The notes beneath the pieces were generated by a model that saw nothing but the letters and a program-made list of their open reading frames with translations, made no database searches and was not told the DNA's origin. Below are positions 46,947 to 62,677 of a stretch of 64,000 nucleotides of DNA, piece by piece. Made by a program: the position numbers and the translations under genes. The DNA lies in the NCBI GenBank assembly GCA_965249175.1, contig OZ252227.1, positions 2,556,900 to 2,620,899 of the forward strand. The letters run 5' to 3'. Origin of the DNA: Vicinamibacterales bacterium. GTDB taxonomy: Bacteria; Acidobacteriota; Vicinamibacteria; Vicinamibacterales; UBA8438. Each line of letters begins with the position of its first letter. The stretch's first letter is position 1.

Positions 46947-47891
46947 TCACCGCGCGCGCGGCGACCGAGGGGGGGCAGACCCGGTGTCCTCCCCGAGCGC
47001 CGACCTGACGACGTCGTGGGCTCGTTTCAGTCGAGCGAGCGCCGCGGCGTAGCTGTCGCCGGTTCTCTCCATGACGATCGCCGCTTTGACGTTCCATCGG
47101 GCCCGTCGCAGCAGCAGCCCCGCGGCGTCGTAGTCGAGGCCCGTCACGGTGGTGATGATGCGACGCGCGCGATCGCGTGCCTTGTCCGAACCCGTCTTCA
47201 CATCGACCATGAGATTGCCGTAGGTCTTGCCGATGTGGACCATCGCGATGGTCGTCAGCATGTTGAGCACCATCTTCGTCGCGGTGCCGGCTTTGAGACG
47301 GGTCGACCCGGCGATGACTTCCGGTCCGACGGCTGGCGCGATCACGACATCCACGAACGTCTGGAGCTCGGTGCCCGGCCAGCAGGTGACAAAGACGATC
47401 TTGACGCCGGCACGACGCGCGCGCGTCAATGCACCGCGCACGAACTGGGTCATCCCGCTCGCGGAGACACCTATGAGCACGTCCTTCCTGCTGGGGCGAA
47501 GTCTGGCGACCGCCCGGCCGCCTTCGTCATAATTGTCTTCGGCGCCGTCTTTCGGATGAAAGAACGCCGAGCGACCGCCCGCCATGATGGCCTGCACCAG
47601 GCGCGCGGGCGTGCTGAACGTCGGGACCATTTCCGCGGCCTCGAGCACGCCGAGTCGACCGCTGGTGCCCGCACCGACGAAGATGACACGGCCTCCGCGA
47701 CGCAGCGCCGCGGTCAGCAGCTCGGCGCCCGTCGCGATCGTGGCTTTCTCGTGCTGGACCGCGGTCAGGACCTTGCGGTCCTCGCTGAGCATGAGCCGGA
47801 TGAGGTCGTCGGTGGACGCCCGGTCCATGGTGAGTGTGTTGGGATTGATCGCCTCGGTCGGCAGGTCCTTCCATTTCGATGATGTCGGCAT
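46947..47891 (-). CDS. murQ: N-acetylmuramic acid 6-phosphate etherase
   Basis: LPTEAINPNT; SIS motif GAGTSGRLGVLEAAEMVPTF; GSTRLKAGTATKMVLNM. Confidence 0.92.
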   Translation of the reverse strand: MPTSSKWKDLPTEAINPNTLTMDRASTDDLIRLMLSEDRKVLTAVQHEKATIATGAELLTAALRRGGRVIFVGAGTSGRLGVLEAAEMVPTFSTPARLVQAIMAGGRSAFFHPKDGAEDNYDEGGRAVARLRPSRKDVLIGVSASGMTQFVRGALTRARRAGVKIVFVTCWPGTELQTFVDVVIAPAVGPEVIAGSTRLKAGTATKMVLNMLTTIAMVHIGKTYGNLMVDVKTGSDKARDRARRIITTVTGLDYDAAGLLLRRARWNVKAAIVMERTGDSYAAALARLKRAHDVVRSALGEDTGSAPPRSPRAR

Positions 47892-47938
47892 CCGACCTGG
47901 TCTGCTGCGGGCGCTCCGGACCGTGGCCGCGCGCCTGT

Positions 47939-47968
47939 TTGACTTGCCTCAAACGGACAAGGTATAAC
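47939..47968 (+). promoter_or_regulatory. Putative sigma-70 promoter of the hom operon leader
   Basis: TTGACT - 18 nt - TATAAC, ~70 nt upstream of the leader-peptide ATG. Confidence 0.5.
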
Positions 47969-48037
47969 TGTCGATTATTCTAGAGCCTACGGGCCCACAT
48001 GCGCAGCATCAGTCTCGTAACCACTCGTTGCTCGACC

Positions 48038-48094
48038 ATGACGTTGACGCCGACGTCGACCCGTCCGACCCGGTCTCGGGCCGGTGCTGGATGA
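48038..48094 (+). CDS. Thr-rich leader peptide (18 aa), thrL-like
   Basis: atg acg ttg acg ccg acg tcg acc cgt ccg acc cgg tct cgg gcc ggt gct gga tga = MTLTPTSTRPTRSRAGAG*. There are five Thr codons in the first 11. The stop lies inside the antiterminator arm. No obvious SD. Confidence 0.55.
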   Translation: MTLTPTSTRPTRSRAGAG

Positions 48095-48123
48095 TGTAGC
48101 CGTCGCGAATCAGTGATTCTCAC

Positions 48124-48161
48124 GGGCCATCATCCATCGCCGGATGATGGCCCTTTTCTTT
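48124..48161 (+). terminator. Intrinsic terminator of the hom-operon attenuator
   Basis: Perfect 12-bp stem gggccatcatcc / ggatgatggccc with the 6-nt loop atcgcc, followed by ttttcttt. It ends 8 nt before the annotated hom ATG. Confidence 0.8.
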
Positions 48162-48168
48162 AGGTGTC

Positions 48169-49455
48169 ATGGAGTCAGTGGAGTCAGTGCTCAAGATCGC
48201 GCTCGTGGGCTTTGGGACGGTGGGGCAGTCCGTCGCGCGCATTCTGTGCGCGGGCACGCATCCGCGGCTGCGGCTCACCCATATCGCGAACCGCAACGTC
48301 GAACGCAAGAAGGCCGACTGGGTGCCGGCGGACGTCATCTGGACGGACCAGGTCAGTCATGTGGTCGCGTCCGAGGCCGACGTGGTCATCGAGGTGATCG
48401 GCGGCGTCGACCCGGCAGCGGACTGGATTCAGCAGTTTCTCCGCGCCGGGAAATCAGTCGTGACGGCGAATAAGCAGGTCATTGCCCTGCATGGTGCCGA
48501 GCTCATGGCGCTGGCTCGGGAACAACGGTGCCATGTGCTCTTCGAAGCGGCTGTTGCGGGGGGGGTGCCCGTCGTGCGGGGCGTGCGCGAGGGCCTTGCC
48601 GGCGACCAGCTGTGCCGGGTGCATGGTGTCTTGAACGGCACCTGCAACTACATCTTGACCCGCATGGAGACGGCCCAGGTGTCGTTCGCCGAGGCTCTGA
48701 CCGAAGCGCAATCGCTCGGGTACGCCGAAGCTGATCCGACAGCGGACGTCGACGGCGCCGACGCGCAGGCCAAGCTCGCTATCCTGTCGATGGTGGGACT
48801 TCGTCGTCAGATCGAGGCCACGACGATTCCGCTCGCGTCGATCCGCCCAATTGAGCCGATTGACTTCGTGTATGCGCGCCGGCTGGAGTGCACGATCCGG
48901 CAGGTGGCGCGCGCGGAGCTCGTGAGCGGCGACCGCCGGGTGCTGGCGTCGGTGATGCCGGCACTCGTCCCGTTGGCCTCCACGCTGGCCCGTATCGAAG
49001 GGAACCAGAACGTCGTCGTCGTCGAAGGTGCTTTCGGTGGCGAAACGGCGTTCTCCGGTTACGGGGCCGGTGGCGACCCGACGGCCGTGGCGGTGGTCTC
49101 AGACCTCGAATCGATCGCGCGTGGTCATGAAGACGCGGCCGCGGACTGGCGGATCGACCGCGCGGAGCGTGTCGAGCGCGAGTTCATGGCGCCGCATTAC
49201 GCCCGATTCATCGTCGCCGATCGGCCCGGTATCATCGCCGCGCTGGCGGATGTCTTCTCGCGACATGGGGTCAACGTCGATGCAGTGCTGCAGGAACCGG
49301 GGTGGTCGAAGGCCGAGCTGCCGTTCGTCGTGACACTGGAGTCGTGCAGTTCGACGGCCGTCAATGCCGCACTGGTCGAGATCGAGGCGTTGGACTTTCA
49401 CGCGCAACGGCCCGTGTGCCTGCCGATTCTCGCGCGAGGACAGCGTCGGTCATGA
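48169..49455 (+). CDS. hom: Homoserine dehydrogenase (with C-terminal ACT domain)
   Basis: LKIALVGFGTVGQSV; ...NGTCNYILTRM. The start is ambiguous (ATG 48169, or GTG 48178/48187 after duplicated GGAG). Confidence 0.92.
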   Translation: MESVESVLKIALVGFGTVGQSVARILCAGTHPRLRLTHIANRNVERKKADWVPADVIWTDQVSHVVASEADVVIEVIGGVDPAADWIQQFLRAGKSVVTANKQVIALHGAELMALAREQRCHVLFEAAVAGGVPVVRGVREGLAGDQLCRVHGVLNGTCNYILTRMETAQVSFAEALTEAQSLGYAEADPTADVDGADAQAKLAILSMVGLRRQIEATTIPLASIRPIEPIDFVYARRLECTIRQVARAELVSGDRRVLASVMPALVPLASTLARIEGNQNVVVVEGAFGGETAFSGYGAGGDPTAVAVVSDLESIARGHEDAAADWRIDRAERVEREFMAPHYARFIVADRPGIIAALADVFSRHGVNVDAVLQEPGWSKAELPFVVTLESCSSTAVNAALVEIEALDFHAQRPVCLPILARGQRRS

Positions 49456-50711
49456 GCTTCGTCACCGGTCTCCAGTGTTCGTTGTGCCGGACCCCGTTTC
49501 CTCCCGAGGCGCTCTACGTCTGCGATCAGTGTCTCGGGCCGCTCGAGGTGACCTACGATCGCGACGCCATCCGCCGAGTGCTCACGCGAGAGGTCATCGC
49601 ATCTCGGCCGCCCAATTTGTGGCGGTATCGGGAGTTGCTTCCGATCGACGGCGACCCGCGCACCGGACTCCAGTCGGGGTTCACGCCGCTCGTGCGCGCG
49701 CATCGGCTGGCGGCTGAGCTCGGCATGCGTGAGCTGTGGATCAAGGACGATTCCGTGAATCACCCGACGCTGTCCTACAAGGATCGAGTGGTGCCCGTGG
49801 CGGCCACACGAGCGGTCGAGCTCGGGTTCACGGTGTTTGGCTGTGCGTCGACGGGGAATCTCGCGAACAGCGTTGCCGCGCATGCCGCGCGCCTCGGGCT
49901 GGCCTGTTACGTCTTCATTCCCGACACCCTCGAGCGGGGCAAGATCCTGGGATCCGCGATCGCCGGACCGCACGTCGTGGCGATCGACGGGACCTACGAC
50001 GACGTCAATCGGCTGTGTACGCAGGTGGGGGAACGATATGGCTGGGGGTTTGCCAACATCAACCTCCGAAGCTACTACGCCGAAGGCGCGAAGACCCTCG
50101 GATTCGAGATCGTCGAGCAGCTCGGCTGGCGGTTTCCACGCCACGTCGTCTCGCCGGTGGCCGGCGGAACGTTGTTGCCGCGGATCGGGAACGGATGTCG
50201 GGAGCTGCGGGACGCGGATCTGGTGGAAGGGGATCTGCCGCGGATTCACGCGGCTCAAGCGGCAGGGTGCGCGCCGGTGATTCGCGCCCTCGAGTCGGGA
50301 GCCGAGTATCCCGAACCGGTCAAACCGGACACCATTGCCAAGTCGATCGCGATCGGAAACCCGGCGGACGGGTTCCACGTGCTGCGCACCGTGCGCGACA
50401 CCGGGGGGTCGGGCGCGAGTGCCACCGATGACGAAATCATCGATGCGATCGGCTTGCTGGCGCGGACGGAGGGTATCTTCACGGAACCCGCCGGCGGCAC
50501 GACCCTCGCCGTGACCATTAAATTGGTCACGGAAGGCGTCATCGAGAAAGACGAATCAACGGTGATGTGCATCACCGGGAACGGATACAAGACCCCCGAG
50601 GTGGTGGCCGCGACAGTGCGGGAGCCGACACGGCTCGCCCGATCACTGCGCGACGTCGAGGACTTCGTTGCCGAGCAGGACGCGCGGCACCGGCGTGAGG
50701 GGCGGCAGTGA
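49452..50711 (+). CDS. thrC: Threonine synthase (with N-terminal Cys4 zinc-ribbon)
   Basis: The ATG overlaps the hom stop (ATGA). CSLC...CDQC, and the PLP-lysine region HPTLSYKDR. Confidence 0.9.
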   Translation: MSFVTGLQCSLCRTPFPPEALYVCDQCLGPLEVTYDRDAIRRVLTREVIASRPPNLWRYRELLPIDGDPRTGLQSGFTPLVRAHRLAAELGMRELWIKDDSVNHPTLSYKDRVVPVAATRAVELGFTVFGCASTGNLANSVAAHAARLGLACYVFIPDTLERGKILGSAIAGPHVVAIDGTYDDVNRLCTQVGERYGWGFANINLRSYYAEGAKTLGFEIVEQLGWRFPRHVVSPVAGGTLLPRIGNGCRELRDADLVEGDLPRIHAAQAAGCAPVIRALESGAEYPEPVKPDTIAKSIAIGNPADGFHVLRTVRDTGGSGASATDDEIIDAIGLLARTEGIFTEPAGGTTLAVTIKLVTEGVIEKDESTVMCITGNGYKTPEVVAATVREPTRLARSLRDVEDFVAEQDARHRREGRQ

Positions 50712-51973
50712 CCCATCCGGAGCTCGGCGTCATTGTCGAGGCGGAGGGGCACTTGATCGACTCGCAGTTGCTCAACGCCATCTTCGACAAGGTCATCGAG
50801 CGCCGCGCGACGTTCGAAGTGCTCGAGTTCGCGATCGGTCGGACGAACGACGAGTTCTCGCGGCTCACACTCCGAGTGACCGCCCCGGATCGCCCCCGCC
50901 TGGTCCAGTTGCTCGAAGAGCTGATGCCGCTTGGCTGCCACCCGGCGCCGGAGCGCGAGGTCGTGCTGAAGGCAGCGGACGTGGACGGATGCGTGCCGGA
51001 CGATTTCTACGCCACAACCAACCATCGAACCCACGTGCGTCATGGAGGGGCGTGGATCGAGGTCGGAGATCAGCGGATGGACGCCGTCATCGTCGTGACC
51101 CCGACCGGCGCAGCCTGCTGCAAGCTGCGAGACGTGCAGGCGGGCGACGCGGTCGTGTGCGGCGTCGATGGCATCCGCGTGGCGCCCGCGTTTCGCGAAC
51201 GCGATCGGCTCGGCTTTGCGTTCATGACCAACGACGTGTCGACCGAGCGACGTGTCGAAGTCACGGTCACCAAGATTCTGGCGATGATGCGGGAGGTGAA
51301 GGCGGCCGGCGGCCGCATCGCGTTCGTGGCCGGCCCGGTCGTCGTTCACAGCGGAGGTGGCGCTTACTTCACCGAGCTCATCCAGCACGGGTTCGTAGAT
51401 GTGCTGCTGGCGGGGAACGCCCTTGCCGTACACGACGTCGAGCACGCGATGTTCGGGACGTCGCTGGGCATCGACCTCGACGCCGGTGTCGCCGTCGAGG
51501 GGGGGCATAAGAACCACATGCGGGCGATCAACGCGATCAACCGTGCCGGCGGTCTGCGCCCTGCGGTCGCGACCGGCGTCCTACGGTCGGGGATCATGCA
51601 CGAGGCGATCACGCGCAAGGTCGACTACGTGCTCGCCGGGAGCATTCGTGACGACGGGCCGTTACTGGACACGATCATGGACCTTGTCGACGCTCAGGAC
51701 AGATACGCGGCGGCGCTCCGCGACGTCACCATGGTCGTCATGCTGTCGACGATGCTCCATAGCATCGGCGTCGGCAACATGCTGCCGTCCTGGGTCCGGG
51801 TCGTGTGCGTGGACATCAACCCCGCGGTCGTGACGAAACTGTCCGATCGGGGTTCGTCTCAAACAGTTGGCGTCGTGACCGACGTCGGTCTGTTCCTACA
51901 CCAGCTGAGCGTGCAGCTGCGTGATCCGGCCCGGGTCGCGGCCCCCGCGACACTCGAGGGGACACACGGATGA
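50708..51973 (+). CDS. TIGR00300 / LOR-SDH conserved-domain family protein (archaeal-type ornithine cyclodeaminase family); the function in this context is unknown
   Basis: 421 aa. The N-terminus GHLIDSQLLNAIFDKVIE... and central FVAGPVVVHSGGG...LLAGNALAVHD...HKNHMRAIN match my memory of this family. It has 4-nt overlaps with both thrC and lysC. Confidence 0.6.
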   Translation: MTHPELGVIVEAEGHLIDSQLLNAIFDKVIERRATFEVLEFAIGRTNDEFSRLTLRVTAPDRPRLVQLLEELMPLGCHPAPEREVVLKAADVDGCVPDDFYATTNHRTHVRHGGAWIEVGDQRMDAVIVVTPTGAACCKLRDVQAGDAVVCGVDGIRVAPAFRERDRLGFAFMTNDVSTERRVEVTVTKILAMMREVKAAGGRIAFVAGPVVVHSGGGAYFTELIQHGFVDVLLAGNALAVHDVEHAMFGTSLGIDLDAGVAVEGGHKNHMRAINAINRAGGLRPAVATGVLRSGIMHEAITRKVDYVLAGSIRDDGPLLDTIMDLVDAQDRYAAALRDVTMVVMLSTMLHSIGVGNMLPSWVRVVCVDINPAVVTKLSDRGSSQTVGVVTDVGLFLHQLSVQLRDPARVAAPATLEGTHG

Positions 51974-53232
51974 GTGCGGCCGTGGGCGAACCGATTGTCG
52001 TGCAGAAGTACGGTGGCACGTCCGTCGCGACTGCGGATCGGATTTGCGCGATTGCAGACCGCATCGCGCGATGCGTGCCGGACCATCCACGTCTCGTGGT
52101 CGTGCTGTCCGCGATGGGGAAGACCACCGATGGCCTCGTGGCCCTCGCTCACGAGGTGGCGCGCCAGCCACAGGGACGGGAAATGGACCTCCTGCTGTCA
52201 ACGGGTGAACAGGTGTCCGTGTCGTTGCTCGGGTTGGCCCTTCAGGACAAGGGGATGGCTGCGGTCTCGTTGACCGCTCCACAGTGCGGGATCCGGACGG
52301 ACAGCGCCTTCAGTATCGCGCGGATCGAGTCCATCGACACGCGGCGTATTCTGGGCGAGCTCGACGAGGGTCGCGTCGTGATCATCGCCGGGTTCCAGGG
52401 TGTGACCCACGATCACGAGGTGACGACGCTCGGGCGCGGTGGGAGCGACATCACGGCCGCCGCGGTGGCGGCGGCGCTCGACGCGCGCGTGTGCGAGATC
52501 TGTACGGATGTCGACGGCGTGATGTCCGCCGACCCGAGCACAGTCCCGCATGCCACGCGGTGGCGCGCCATCAGCTACGAAGAGGCCGTGGAGATGGCCT
52601 CGAGCGGCGCGAAGGTGCTGCACCCACGTGCGGCCGAGGTCTGCATGGCGTACGGCATTCCCATTCATGTGCGCTCGAGCTTCCACATGGATGAGGGGAC
52701 GTGGATTCGCGGAGGCGACGACATGGTGATGGAACAAGCGGCCGTGGTTGGTGTGAGCAGCGACAAGCAGATCGCCAAGGTCACCCTGCTGGAGGTGCCG
52801 GACAGACCCGGGATGGCCGCCCGGGTATTTCAGGACCTCGCGGCTGGCGGGATCAGCGTGCGCCTCATCATCCAGAGCGCAAGCTCCGAAGGTCGAGGGC
52901 GAATCACGTTCGTGCTCGATGCCGAGTACGCCGATGGCGCGGCCACCCTGATCGACCACTGGAAGGCCGAAGGCGTCGCGAGTGCGGGGACCGTCGAGCG
53001 CGACGTGGCGAAGATCTCGATTGTCGGTTCGCGCCTCGCGTCGACACCTGGGCTGGCCGCGCGGATGTTCGCCGTCCTGGCGCGTGAGGGCATCAATATC
53101 GACTGCATCAGCTCGTCCGAAATGAAGGTCGCGTGTGTCATCGCCTCGGCCCAGGTCGACCAGGCCGTGCGCGCTGTCCACGACGAATTCTTTCCGCAGG
53201 CGGACCCGGTGGGGTCCGGGTCGACGGGGTAG
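51970..53232 (+). CDS. lysC: Aspartate kinase (two C-terminal ACT domains)
   Basis: VVQKYGGTSVA...VVVLSAMGKTTD...GRGGSDITAAA. Confidence 0.93.
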   Translation: MSAAVGEPIVVQKYGGTSVATADRICAIADRIARCVPDHPRLVVVLSAMGKTTDGLVALAHEVARQPQGREMDLLLSTGEQVSVSLLGLALQDKGMAAVSLTAPQCGIRTDSAFSIARIESIDTRRILGELDEGRVVIIAGFQGVTHDHEVTTLGRGGSDITAAAVAAALDARVCEICTDVDGVMSADPSTVPHATRWRAISYEEAVEMASSGAKVLHPRAAEVCMAYGIPIHVRSSFHMDEGTWIRGGDDMVMEQAAVVGVSSDKQIAKVTLLEVPDRPGMAARVFQDLAAGGISVRLIIQSASSEGRGRITFVLDAEYADGAATLIDHWKAEGVASAGTVERDVAKISIVGSRLASTPGLAARMFAVLAREGINIDCISSSEMKVACVIASAQVDQAVRAVHDEFFPQADPVGSGSTG

Positions 53233-53238
53233 GGAGCA

Positions 53239-54285
53239 ATGGACGGTCGACTCGACGTCGGGATCCTCGGCGCGACCGGTACGATCGGTCAGGAGTTCAT
53301 CGCCGAGCTCGCGGCGCATCCCTGGTTCAACGTGGCGTGGCTGGCTGCCAGTGAGCGATCCGCGGGTCGGCGTTACGGCGACGCGACCGAGTGGCGGCTC
53401 CCGTCGGTGTTGCCCGCGTCGGTGGCCGACATGGTCGTGCACCCGTGCGAGCCGGCCGGCGCACCGAGCCTGGTGTTCTCGGGACTCGATGCGTCGGTGG
53501 CTGGCGATGTCGAGACCGCCTTCGCGTCGGCCGGTCACACGGTGGTGAGCAACGCGCGCAACCATCGCATGGCGGGGGACGTGCCGCTCCTGGTGCCCGA
53601 GATCAACCCCGACCACCTGCAGTTGCTCGCACGGCAGCGACGCGTTCGGGGATGGTCGGGTCGGATCGTCACGAACGCCAATTGCTCGACGATTGTGCTC
53701 ACGATGGCGCTGGCGCCGCTGTGTCGGTTCGGCTTGCGGTCGGCCACGGTGTCGACGCTGCAGGCGGTCTCGGGCGCCGGGTATCCGGGCGAGGCCTCGC
53801 TGGATATTCTGGGCAACGTCATCCCGTTCATTGCGGGCGAAGAAGAGAAGATGGAGTCCGAGACCCAGAAGATCCTCGGGTGTTTCGAGGACGATGCCGT
53901 GACGCCGCACGCGGTCACGATCAGCGCGCAGACCACGCGAGTGCCGGTGGTCCATGGTCACACCGAGCTGGTGTCGGTCGCGCTGGAGACCCAGCCGTCG
54001 ATCGACGACGTGAGGGAGGCGTTCCGCGGTTTCGCCGGGCGTCCGCAGGCCGAGCGCCTCCCGAGCGCTCCGCCGCACCCGGTGCTCTATCTCGCGGAGC
54101 CCGCACGGCCGCAGCCGCGGCTCGATGTCGATCGGGACGGGGGGATGACCGTGTCTGTCGGGCGCCTGCGTCCGTGTCCGGTGCTCGACTATAAATTCGT
54201 CGTGCTCGGACACAACACCGTGCGCGGCGCCGCCGGTGCGGCTTTGCTGAACGCCGAGCTGATGCGGGTGGATGGGCTCATGTAG
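53239..54285 (+). CDS. asd: Aspartate-semialdehyde dehydrogenase
   Basis: GILGATGTIGQEF...NCSTIVL (catalytic Cys)...GHNTVRGAAG. Confidence 0.92.
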   Translation: MDGRLDVGILGATGTIGQEFIAELAAHPWFNVAWLAASERSAGRRYGDATEWRLPSVLPASVADMVVHPCEPAGAPSLVFSGLDASVAGDVETAFASAGHTVVSNARNHRMAGDVPLLVPEINPDHLQLLARQRRVRGWSGRIVTNANCSTIVLTMALAPLCRFGLRSATVSTLQAVSGAGYPGEASLDILGNVIPFIAGEEEKMESETQKILGCFEDDAVTPHAVTISAQTTRVPVVHGHTELVSVALETQPSIDDVREAFRGFAGRPQAERLPSAPPHPVLYLAEPARPQPRLDVDRDGGMTVSVGRLRPCPVLDYKFVVLGHNTVRGAAGAALLNAELMRVDGLM

Positions 54286-60967: not shown

Positions 60968-62677
60968 ATGTCGCGCCCGGCGACACGCTATCTCGTGATC
61001 ACGATGACGGCGGCCATTGTGGCCGCCGTTTTGTTGTTTCTGGTGCTGCCGCCGCCGGCGCGGGTTGTCGTCGTCCCCGACCCGCCGGGTGCCGACGATG
61101 GAGCGGTCGTCGTGCGTGGAGCGTTTCACGTGCACAGCGATCGCTCGGACGGGAGCGGGTCGGTGACGGAGATCGCCGACGCGGCCCGACGGGCGGGCCT
61201 CGATTTTGTCATCCTGACGGATCACGGTGACGGCACACGTCCGCCGCGCTCGCCCGTGTATCACCATGGGGTGCTCTGTGTCGACGCGGTGGAGATCAGC
61301 ACGGACAGCGGCCACTACATTGCACTTGGCTTACCCGTGGCGCCCTATCCTCTTGGCGGCGACGCGCGCGGGGTCGTCGAGGACGTGGCGCGGCTGGGAG
61401 GGTTCGGCGTGGTGGCCCACCCGGCCTCGCCAAAACCCGCGCTCCGTTGGGAGGATTGGAATCTGCCGGTGGACGCCGTGGAGTGGATCAACGGCGACAG
61501 CCAATGGCGAGACGATAGCGTCGCCGCGTTGGCGCTCGCGGCGATGGGGTATTGGCTCAGGGCGCCGGAGAGCCTGGCGCGGTTGCTCGACCGTCCGGAC
61601 GCGGCGTTGGCGCGGTGGGATGCTCAGACCGCGGTCCGTCCCGTCGTCGGGATTGGTGGAATCGATGCCCACGCGCGGCTGGCGACCGGTGTCGGAGAGG
61701 ATGGCTACGAGGATGCGCTGGCGGTCAGCTTTCCGGGCTACGCACCGCTGTTTCGGGCGTTCGCGGTCCGCGTGGGCTTGGCCCGTGCATGGCGCGGCGA
61801 TGCAATGAACGACGCACGCGCGTTGGTGTCCGCCATCCGCGCCGGACGCACGTTCACCGCGATCGATGCGCTGGCGCGCCCGGTCTTCTTCAGCTACCAC
61901 GCGGAACACGAGGCGCAAATTGTCGAGATGGGAGGGCAGGTGCGCGCCACGGGGGCGGTGTCGCTTCGCGCCATGGTGGGTGGCCCACCGGGGACCGAGA
62001 TGGTTCTGATGCGCGACGGCCGCCCGGTCGCGCGCGCGCCGGCCGAACTGGAGTACCAGATCACGGCGCGGGCACCGGCGGCGGCGTACCGAGTCGAGGT
62101 GCATCTTCCCGACGCGCCGGGAACGCCCCCGGTCCCCTGGATCGTCGGTAATCCGATTTACGTCGGCGAGAGGGTCGTGGCCGTCAACGCCACGCCGCCG
62201 AGGCCCCCGACGGCCGTCGTCCCGCTCACGACACCCGACGGCTGGCACGCCGAGCAGGACACCGGCACCATCGCCGACGTGGACGCCGTCGGCACGCGCG
62301 TGCGCCTGCGGTTTCAGCTCGGCGAGGGACCGGGGCCGCACGCCGCCGCCGTGTACGAGGTCACCGCAGGGACGCTGGTCGCCTACGACCATCTCGCGTT
62401 CGATGTCGTCGCGAACCAGCCGGTCCGGGCATCGGTGCAGCTGCGGGTGGCGGGACGAGACGACGTGCGCTGGCGGCGGTCGTTCTACGCCGGACCCGAG
62501 ATGCGGTCCGTGCAGGTACGCTTCTCTGAGCTGACCCCCGTGACGCCGACGCTCGCCCCCCAGCCCGATCTTCGGCGGGTGGAAAGCGTGATGGTGGTGG
62601 TGGATGCGGTCAATACACCGCCCGGGACCGCCGGGACGCTGTCGGTGATCGCCCCACGTCTGCTCTCTTCCAATTGA
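60968..62677 (+). CDS. Membrane-anchored PHP-domain metallo-phosphoesterase family protein
   Basis: N-terminal TM segment; PHP motif GAFHVHSDRSDGSGS...DFVILTDHGD. The large C-terminal region is uncharacterised. Confidence 0.7.
   Translation: MSRPATRYLVITMTAAIVAAVLLFLVLPPPARVVVVPDPPGADDGAVVVRGAFHVHSDRSDGSGSVTEIADAARRAGLDFVILTDHGDGTRPPRSPVYHHGVLCVDAVEISTDSGHYIALGLPVAPYPLGGDARGVVEDVARLGGFGVVAHPASPKPALRWEDWNLPVDAVEWINGDSQWRDDSVAALALAAMGYWLRAPESLARLLDRPDAALARWDAQTAVRPVVGIGGIDAHARLATGVGEDGYEDALAVSFPGYAPLFRAFAVRVGLARAWRGDAMNDARALVSAIRAGRTFTAIDALARPVFFSYHAEHEAQIVEMGGQVRATGAVSLRAMVGGPPGTEMVLMRDGRPVARAPAELEYQITARAPAAAYRVEVHLPDAPGTPPVPWIVGNPIYVGERVVAVNATPPRPPTAVVPLTTPDGWHAEQDTGTIADVDAVGTRVRLRFQLGEGPGPHAAAVYEVTAGTLVAYDHLAFDVVANQPVRASVQLRVAGRDDVRWRRSFYAGPEMRSVQVRFSELTPVTPTLAPQPDLRRVESVMVVVDAVNTPPGTAGTLSVIAPRLLSSN

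Follow-up and report, generated by a model that had tools for sequence, protein, structure and literature searches.

Why should an intrinsic terminator stand only 8 nucleotides (nt) before the first gene of a biosynthetic operon, and what might decide whether RNA polymerase passes it? The question is raised by a 64,000-nt stretch of DNA (hereafter the window: assembly GCA_965249175.1, contig OZ252227.1, positions 2,556,900 to 2,620,899 of the forward strand) from a Vicinamibacterales bacterium of the phylum Acidobacteriota, in which a promoter, a short open reading frame (ORF), and a terminator precede the operon hom-thrC-X-lysC-asd (48169..54285, + strand; window coordinates throughout). Acidobacteria are abundant in soil and hard to culture, and their gene regulation is almost unexplored. 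We propose, with a probability of roughly 0.72, that the region between the promoter and hom is a ribosome-mediated leader-peptide transcription attenuator of this operon, sensing the charging of tRNA-Thr and perhaps also methionine (Met). A preliminary description, made from the sequence of the window, had interpreted the region as a classical attenuator governed by threonine (Thr) codons; conserved complementarity, covariation, conservation of the ORF and its stop, and codon bias all support that interpretation. Coordinates of the features are collected in Table 1.

The terminator, directly upstream of the first structural gene, is the perfect stem first described, with 8 of its 12 pairs G-C and UUUUCUUU following; the sequence and a consensus scan agree on this and on its distance from hom. 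Its 5' arm has a second potential partner. The octamer GGATGATG (48089-48096) is identical to 48142-48149 in the terminator 3' arm and complementary to CATCATCC (48128-48135) in the 5' arm; this pairing of GGAUGAUG with CAUCAUCC, a 4-bp extension (CCGT 48100-48103 with ACGG 48122-48125), and a small inner hairpin (GAATC/GATTC) are all present as reported. The resulting alternative helix, the antiterminator, had been placed correctly in its core but drawn too short: it also takes in 48081-48085 with 48139-48143 and the pair U48088-A48136. Terminator and antiterminator are mutually exclusive, the 5' arm and loop of the former serving as partners in both. Between the upstream transcript and that arm plus loop runs a 9-nt perfect match, a length reached by 17 of 2000 dinucleotide shuffles, and the antiterminator duplex, at -24.3 kcal/mol against -15.5 +/- 2.6 for the shuffles, is equaled in energy by 6 of 2000. 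The leader fold has z = -3.8 against shuffles, and the minimum-energy structure of the full leader is the antiterminator, not the terminator. A repeat family or repetitive extragenic palindromic (REP)-like element was considered and rejected, as GGCCATCATCC (with up to one mismatch) is no commoner than in shuffles and a search with covariance model R1 gives one copy for the whole window.

The nearest genome match to the window is a Vicinamibacterales metagenome-assembled genome (MAG), also of the Acidobacteriota, with a Hom protein 95% identical (locus L001); a genome scan gave this locus, which has the leader, and a second, L002, which does not. Relatives fetched from a homologue list have Hom 66-86% identical to that of the window. 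A metagenome scan yielded 80 mostly distant loci (Hom <= 64% identical), among which only L008, L009, L030, L036, and L048 have the element; it is missing from the remaining 70-odd Acidobacterial loci of that scan, whose Hom is about 47-58% identical. The element precedes aspartate-pathway genes in every locus that holds it and recurs in thirteen more distinct sequences of Vicinamibacterales-like Acidobacteria, over Hom identities from 95% down to 56%. Seventeen distinct copies were aligned (alignment A4: the window, L001, L003, L005, L006, L088, L090, L097, L089, L091, L092, L094, L096, L008, L009, L030, and L036).

Both helices, whose persistence in relatives was one check on the preliminary description, are retained over this whole range. 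The terminator helix is 99.5% paired across the 17 sequences, and 4 of its 12 pairs have undergone compensatory change on both sides. The antiterminator core (alignment columns 15-23 with 61-69; window 48088-48096 with 48128-48136) is conserved as well. Column pair 15-69 is C-G in 12 sequences, U-A in two, and U-G in one; because column 69 sits in the terminator loop, this pair supports the antiterminator alone. Columns 18, 66, and 79 vary together as A-U-A, G-U-G, or G-C-G, with the A/G of the upstream arm and that of the terminator 3' arm both tracking the U/C of the strand they share, a three-way covariation that would be expected of two mutually exclusive helices competing for one strand. 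The extension CC 48100-48101 with GG 48124-48125 is kept as C-G in 16/17 and 13/17 sequences, and the inner hairpin shows compensatory changes in close relatives (GAATC/GATTC, GAGTCC/GACTC, GAGTCG/CGACTC) and is missing in distant ones.

This conservation bears on the simplest alternative, namely that what lies between murQ and hom is just an intrinsic terminator, leaky or constitutive, or else a hairpin due to chance, with no regulatory alternative structure. Hairpins are indeed common in GC-rich DNA, and any single-sequence fold has alternatives. The present one, however, is unidirectional, preceded by a conserved promoter and followed by hom, with the neighboring gene divergent; its two helices are both conserved with covariation; and the complementarity exceeds that of the dinucleotide shuffles in length and in energy. 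A strict hairpin-plus-T-tract scan of the 64 kb found only two canonical intrinsic terminators of such quality, the leader terminator being one. We regard a plain terminator as extremely unlikely. The other terminator found by that scan, at 61006-61030 (+), has an 11-bp stem, GACGGCGGCCA...TGGCCGCCGTT, followed by TTGTTGTT; with two in 64 kb, canonical intrinsic terminators appear to be rare in the source genome.

The second line of evidence is the place where the leader ORF ends. The antiterminator 5' arm carries the motif GGNUGAUGUAGCC, in which UGA is followed five bases on by UAG or UAA in a different frame. TGA is present in 15 of the 17 aligned sequences and TAG or TAA in 14; no sequence is without one or the other in the frame of the ORF opened by the first ATG after the -10 hexamer. 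In the 12 relatives that have both the promoter pattern and such an ATG, the ORF is 23-34 codons long and its first stop is the UGA or UAG of the arm. The distance from the first ATG to the UGA position differs among lineages (93, 87, 96, 69, 82, and 97 nt); because it varies, several indels must have occurred, each of which kept the end of the ORF on the arm. Thus L003 and L004 have an 11-nt deletion and their ORF stops at UAG; in L088 and L090, UGA has become UGC and the first-ATG ORF is in the UAG frame; and L091, L092, and L094, which are without the UAG, have their ORFs in the UGA frame. The start, frame, and stop of this short ORF between the promoter and the first biosynthetic gene are conserved in relatives, and the stop is so placed that a terminating ribosome would mask the antiterminator 5' strand, at UGA 48092 within 48088-48096 in the window and by way of UGA or UAG in every relative. 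Such a frame-aware pattern of indels and stops would be unexpected for a riboswitch or a protein-binding site, and a putative translated leader ORF is the best reading of it. That the upstream ATG is merely conserved RNA is disfavored by the frame-aware stop usage and by the change from ATG to GTG in L097. We propose that the second stop, UAG, serves as a fail-safe, by which ribosomes in two of the three frames would end on the arm.

The conserved arm could also be viewed as a binding site. In that explanation a trans-acting factor (an RNA-binding protein, uncharged tRNA, or a small molecule) binds GGNUGAUGUAGCC or the 5' leader and stabilizes one conformer, and the ORF is a by-product of stop-poor, high-GC sequence. 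It would account for the fact that the terminator stem and GGNUGAUGUARCC are unusually conserved in sequence, not merely in pairing, down to 56% Hom identity, and for the lack of a Shine-Dalgarno (SD) sequence, and RNAalifold can put UGAUGUA in the loop of a 3-bp hairpin. Against it, neither the antiterminator loop nor the ORF region is constant in sequence or length, and no conserved junction or bulge resembling a ligand pocket is present; in alignments A2 and A4 the loop, A-rich and in other respects variable, shows no conserved core of unpaired bases. Searches of Rfam with the whole window at gathering score, and with 47850-48250 at E <= 10, gave no match to Thr_leader (RF00506), T-box (RF00230), Lysine (RF00168), or the SAM classes, and the matches that did appear (Rothia-sucC, and ctRNA_p42d on the bare terminator) were sub-threshold and due to chance. 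The frame-aware indels, stops, and start (ATG to GTG), together with the in-frame bias of ACN and ATG described below, would be hard to explain without translation, and we judge a trans-acting factor to be quite improbable.

Where might translation of the leader begin? The preliminary description had placed the start at ATG 48038, giving an 18-codon leader with Thr at codons 2, 4, 6, 8, and 11 that ends at TGA 48092-48094. This ORF is real, but the conserved start is probably ATG 47999, which adds 13 in-frame codons and gives a leader of 31 codons with 8 Thr. ATG 47999 is the first in the window after the -10 box, 30 nt past it, and is favored because the first ATG after the -10 is conserved: in relatives with a recognizable promoter the corresponding position, 16-47 nt past the -10, is also occupied by an ATG (by GTG in L097). 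ATG 48038, which would then be an internal Met codon, is retained in L001, L003, and L089; its likely equivalent in L094 is ATA, judging from peptides compared by eye (STM vs. STI). In L003 and L004 the 48038-type ATG is the sole ATG in frame with the Thr codons. The caveat that no obvious SD precedes the leader ATG was well taken, and applies likewise to ATG 47999; a start at 47999 may nevertheless bear on it, though this ATG too is without a clear SD, and the 5' untranslated region (UTR) in lineages sharing the early ATG would be about 10-25 nt. If the leader reading holds, the locus encodes a translated small ORF overlooked by gene callers, and a short terminated transcript is predicted.

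The third line of evidence is codon content. The 30 post-start codons of the window ORF include 8 for Thr (binomial p = 7e-4 against the composition of the window-encoded proteins). Counted in the first-ATG ORFs, with the start codon included in the total, there are 8 Thr in 31 codons in the window, 6 in 31 in L001, 6 in 29 in L089, 5 in 29 in L092, 5 in 32 in L096, 4 in 29 in L091, 3 in 29 in L094, 2 in 23 in L008, 2 in 32 in L005 and (from translation) L006, and 0 in 34 in L088 and (from translation) L090 and L097; L003 has 0 in 29, and 5 in 18 from its internal ATG. Pooled over eight lineages, among which related lineages were counted as independent, so that significance is somewhat overstated, Thr is enriched 2.0-fold (p = 1e-4), more significantly than any other residue, and non-initiator Met 2.4-fold (p = 4e-3). 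The pooled leaders are rich in Gly, Pro, and Arg as well, as expected for GC-rich paired RNA, and poor in Asp, Glu, Ile, Lys, and Val. The same result comes from a control independent of composition, in that AC dinucleotides fall in the ORF frame in 32 of 46 pooled cases (p = 6e-7) and in all 8 in the window; ATG trinucleotides do so in 13 of 14 pooled cases (p = 6e-6) and in the single case in the window. The positions of the Thr codons shift between lineages while their number stays high, which points to selection on codons and not on the peptide sequence. Given the in-frame ATG enrichment, Met may be sensed too, in some lineages. An alternative Asp-codon frame (GAC repeats at 48040-48070, reading DVDADVDPSD and ending at UAG, which is the first-ATG frame of L003) was rejected as a general signal, since L089, L091, L092, and L096 keep in-frame ACN though they lack the GACG periodicity, and the pooled leaders are poor in Asp.

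From these features a mechanism can be proposed, in which we infer leader ORF translation, the choice of start codon, stalling at Thr codons and its effect, and the helix between regions 1 and 2. Transcription would begin a few bases past TATAAC, at about 47975, and a ribosome would load on the short, SD-less 5' end and translate the leader ORF, most likely 47999-48094 with its 8 Thr codons. With charged tRNA-Thr plentiful, the ribosome would reach UGA 48092 inside the antiterminator 5' arm and cover that arm; the 12-bp terminator (48124-48153 plus UUUUCUUU) would then form, and transcription would halt 8 nt before hom. With tRNA-Thr charging low, the ribosome would stall on the Thr codons between 48020 and 48068 and melt the predicted region 1:2 helix, so that region 2 could engage the 5' arm and loop of the terminator and RNA polymerase would continue into hom. 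With no ribosome, region 1 is predicted to hold region 2, and the terminator would form.

The layout is the classical one of 1:2, 2:3, and 3:4 helices, the first of these being predicted from folding. In folds of the growing transcript, region 2 pairs first with 48054-48061, which engages 7 of the 9 core-arm nucleotides, and moves to region 3 when 48137 is exposed; at this stage, with region 4 yet to appear, the antiterminator is the minimum-energy fold. Full-length folds of relatives place upstream ORF sequence in a comparable role, sequestering region 2 to varying degrees in most of them, alongside the terminator. Most of the Thr codons are 20-68 nt away from the core arm on its upstream side, and a ribosome stalled there would leave it free. 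When a 30-nt footprint is blocked at the stop codon, the leader folds into the terminator; when the block is at Thr codon 48023, 48041, 48053, or 48068, the antiterminator results.

Several observations weigh against the attenuator reading. Neither leader ATG in the window is preceded by an SD, hom itself having AGGUG, and the pooled codon statistics carry the overstatement already mentioned. The region 1:2 helix is a prediction that cannot be aligned across lineages. With the footprint at Thr codon 48047 or 48059, two of the six stall positions, the terminator remains in the minimum-energy fold by a small margin; since no more than a few kcal/mol separate the two states, the outcome of the switch must be kinetic. 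The operon also supplies Lys and diaminopimelate, through lysC and asd, and these are not obviously served by Thr sensing alone. In the Streptomyces coelicolor ilvB leader, mutation of candidate regulatory codons is reported to have left regulation unaffected (PMC1262725). The main reservations concern the Thr codons themselves, which are enriched in the window and most relatives, where their number if not their position is kept, but not in all: the clade of L005, L006, L088, L090, and L097 keeps the promoter, ORF, stop position, and switch, yet has only 0-2 Thr codons, and in L003 and L004 the 11-nt deletion leaves the first ATG opening onto a frame rich in Asp, so that the Thr codons are read from the internal ATG alone. 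Because of these two groups, Thr specificity must be regarded as lineage-dependent.

The same two groups bear on the chief rival explanation, that the switch is driven by leader translation without being Thr-specific. The Thr codons would then be incidental or only modulatory, and the element would report translation capacity, transcription-translation coupling, or some other signal conveyed by the nascent peptide or the stop codon. Consistent with this, the ORF and its stop position are kept in all lineages and the Thr codons are not (0-2 in the clade just named, 0 in the first-ATG frame of L003), and in the distant L009, L030, and L036 the ORFs are longer, hydrophobic, and rich in Leu, and contain no more than 2-4 Thr. 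On the other side stand the in-frame position of all 8 AC dinucleotides of the window ORF, the enrichment of Thr, which in the pooled leaders is more significant than that of any other residue, the movement of Thr positions at a steadily high count, and the fact that the operon makes threonine. We consider non-specific sensing of translation unlikely, and attenuation in response to tRNA-Thr charging remains the reading that we prefer.

Table 1. Features of the putative attenuator and of the operon downstream, in window coordinates
Feature	Position	Strand	Remarks
-35 hexamer TTGACT	47939-47944	+	Read from sequence; 18-nt spacer to -10
-10 hexamer TATAAC	47963-47968	+	Read from sequence; TATAAC, TATAAT, TATAAA, or TATTAT in relatives
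Probable full leader ORF, MRSISLVTTRCSTMTLTPTSTRPTRSRAGAG	47999..48094	+	31 codons and TGA; read from first ATG after -10
Thr codons of the 31-codon ORF	48020, 48023, 48035, 48041, 48047, 48053, 48059, 48068	+	
18-codon ORF, MTLTPTSTRPTRSRAGAG	48038..48094	+	In frame with the longer ORF, being its 3' part; possible alternative start
Region 1, predicted anti-antiterminator strand	48051..48075	+	Overlaps Thr-codon cluster; predicted to pair with region 2 before region 3 is transcribed
Region 2, antiterminator 5' arm	48081..48103	+	Pairs: 48081-48085/48139-48143, 48088-48096/48128-48136, 48100-48103/48122-48125
Two-frame stop motif TGATGTAG	48092..48099	+	TGA 48092-48094 ends leader ORF; TAG 48097-48099 in another frame
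Inner hairpin GAATC-AGT-GATTC	48107..48119	+	GAATC 48107-48111, GATTC 48115-48119; in antiterminator loop
Region 3, terminator 5' arm GGGCCATCATCC and loop ATCGCC	48124..48141	+	Arm 48124-48135, loop 48136-48141; both also antiterminator partners
Region 4, terminator 3' arm GGATGATGGCCC	48142..48153	+	
T-tract TTTTCTTT	48154..48161	+	Expected 3' end of attenuated transcript; conserved across alignment A4
AGGTG (SD-like sequence) and hom ATG	48162..48171	+	Follow the T-tract; hom ATG at 48169
hom	48169-49455	+	Pfam, NCBIfam
thrC	49452-50711	+	Pfam, NCBIfam
X	50708-51973	+	TIGR00300, nickel-pincer-nucleotide-dependent ornithine cyclodeaminase; 517 bits against a cut-off of 410.8
lysC	51970-53232	+	Pfam, NCBIfam
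asd	53239-54285	+	Pfam, NCBIfam

The promoter is present as first described. TTGACT or TTGACG with an 18-nt spacer was recognized by pattern search in 12 of the 13 relatives in which a promoter was found, and the match with a 19-nt spacer in L097 is probably an artifact of the anchoring of the pattern. The window promoter is absent from the output of the consensus scan because the rule applied there demands a T at position 6, the last, of the -10. A 9-mer at the hom 5' end, GGAGTCAGT, is duplicated in tandem (x2; 48171-48188), and the gene may start in the window at ATG 48169 or GTG 48187; the relatives appear to use the equivalent of GTG 48187.

The gene content of the operon was confirmed by Pfam and NCBIfam. 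The same gene order is found, as far as each locus reaches, in L003, L005-L007, and L088-L097, and the upstream neighbor is a divergent murQ-like gene in the window and most close relatives. Gene X, an unexpected partner for aspartate-pathway genes, follows thrC in every close relative fetched and precedes lysC where the locus extends that far.

Several loci differ in what lies between the element and the genes. The leader of L001, 96% identical to that of the window, is about 800 bp from its operon owing to an IS200-like element (L001:2208-3000) inserted exactly between the attenuator T-tract and hom, at the equivalent of window position ~48164/48165; the insertion carries a Y1 transposase ORF (L001:2465-2893; Pfam PF01797, E = 1e-37). 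In L048 a 5'-truncated copy (L048:1-63) precedes a 59-amino-acid ORF and a gene for aspartate kinase (MKFGGTSV...), hom following after another ~1.9 kb, an arrangement which indicates that the putative attenuator travels with aspartate-pathway genes in differing gene order. The distant L009 (1344-1529), L030 (275-442), and L036 (1816-2001) have a conserved small acidic ORF of about 50-61 amino acids between terminator and hom, with the C-terminus ...EEAGYGYGV, a GGAGG-like SD upstream, and no Pfam match. In L002, an uncultured Acidobacteriota MAG with Hom 55% identical and no attenuator, a long tandem array of the heptamer GATTAGG (L002:~2500-2890) lies directly upstream of hom. A different-looking hom leader occurs in the Acidobacterial locus L020 (1700-1945; Hom 53% identical), with TTGACT-18-CTTAAT, an ORF MSTRCQIRTIVACRRPAMAMSMHMCTIRPTGAGFQQS (5 Met, 4 Thr, and 3 Ile codons, then a stop), and a terminator AACCCATCGC...GCGATGGGTT with a T-run 58 nt before hom; it matches model R1 weakly (E = 0.13) and may be a Met/Thr/Ile attenuator.

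How, then, does the element relate to systems already known? As of 2010, leader peptides were known only in Proteobacteria and Actinobacteria, to which the survey of that year added the Firmicutes, and almost no predicted Acidobacterial attenuator in that survey had an assigned function (PMC2965389). No RNA element was found upstream of the threonine operons of Actinobacteria (PMC1262725). A literature search found no description of the present element or of any Acidobacterial leader peptide or attenuator. It is possible, though on balance doubtful, that this is the first leader-peptide attenuator family defined in the Acidobacteriota, combining bivalent Thr and Met sensing, SD-less initiation near the transcript 5' end, and a conserved two-frame stop cassette (UGA-UG-UAG) in the antiterminator arm. 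If so, in-frame Thr and Met codons would let one leader cover both homoserine-derived amino acids, the cassette would keep the switch working despite frame-shifting indels, and the UGAUG/AUGUAG arrangement could hold a terminating or re-initiating ribosome on the arm. More generally, the locus would give the aspartate-family pathway of Vicinamibacterales-like bacteria a well-defined regulatory unit open to test, extend the phylogenetic range of classical attenuation, and provide, in its Thr-rich, Thr- and Met-rich, and Thr-poor leaders, a natural series on one RNA switch for the evolution of attenuator amino-acid specificity.

T-box leaders, which control Thr-related genes such as thrS in Firmicutes, likewise choose between terminator and antiterminator upstream of amino-acid genes by reading tRNA charging. 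The present element differs from them in having no Stem I, specifier loop, or T-box sequence, variable coding-like sequence lying upstream of the arm instead, and in its proposed sensor, which is a translating ribosome and not a tRNA bound directly to the RNA. With the trp, his, leu, ilvGMEDA, and pheA attenuators of Proteobacteria it would share, given the predicted region 1:2 helix, the four-region scheme (1:2, 2:3, 3:4) and regulatory codons in region 1; like that of ilvGMEDA, it may be multivalent, for Thr plus Met. The four-region design would likewise be shared with the trp and leuS attenuators of Actinobacteria (PMC1262725) and the his leader of Firmicutes (PMC2965389), which differ in lineage and in the amino acid sensed.

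The closest parallel is thrL of Escherichia coli and other Gammaproteobacteria (RF00506), which the locus had been said to mirror. The design is indeed shared: a Thr-rich leader peptide before homoserine dehydrogenase, aspartate kinase, and threonine synthase activities; a stop codon within the antiterminator strand or adjoining it; an intrinsic terminator, rich in G+C, shortly ahead of the first structural gene; and a logic in which stalling would lead to readthrough and completion to termination. Even the peptides end alike, in ...GAG. The likeness does not amount to homology, there being no similarity in sequence or to the Thr_leader covariance model even at E <= 10, and the phylum, here represented by Vicinamibacterales-like bacteria, is a different one. 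The Thr codons of the present leader alternate with other codons and do not run together with Ile; Met codons are enriched and Ile codons are not; no SD precedes the leader ORF, whose 5' UTR is short; the arm contains two stops, each in a frame of its own; and hom and lysC are separate genes, accompanied by asd and an ornithine cyclodeaminase-like gene, with no thrB. The element is thus a functional analogue of thrL and not a member of the Rfam Thr_leader family. Its proposed mechanism is a textbook one; its distinguishing marks are an arm with stops in two frames, putative initiation from a short 5' UTR without an SD, and in-frame enrichment of Met.

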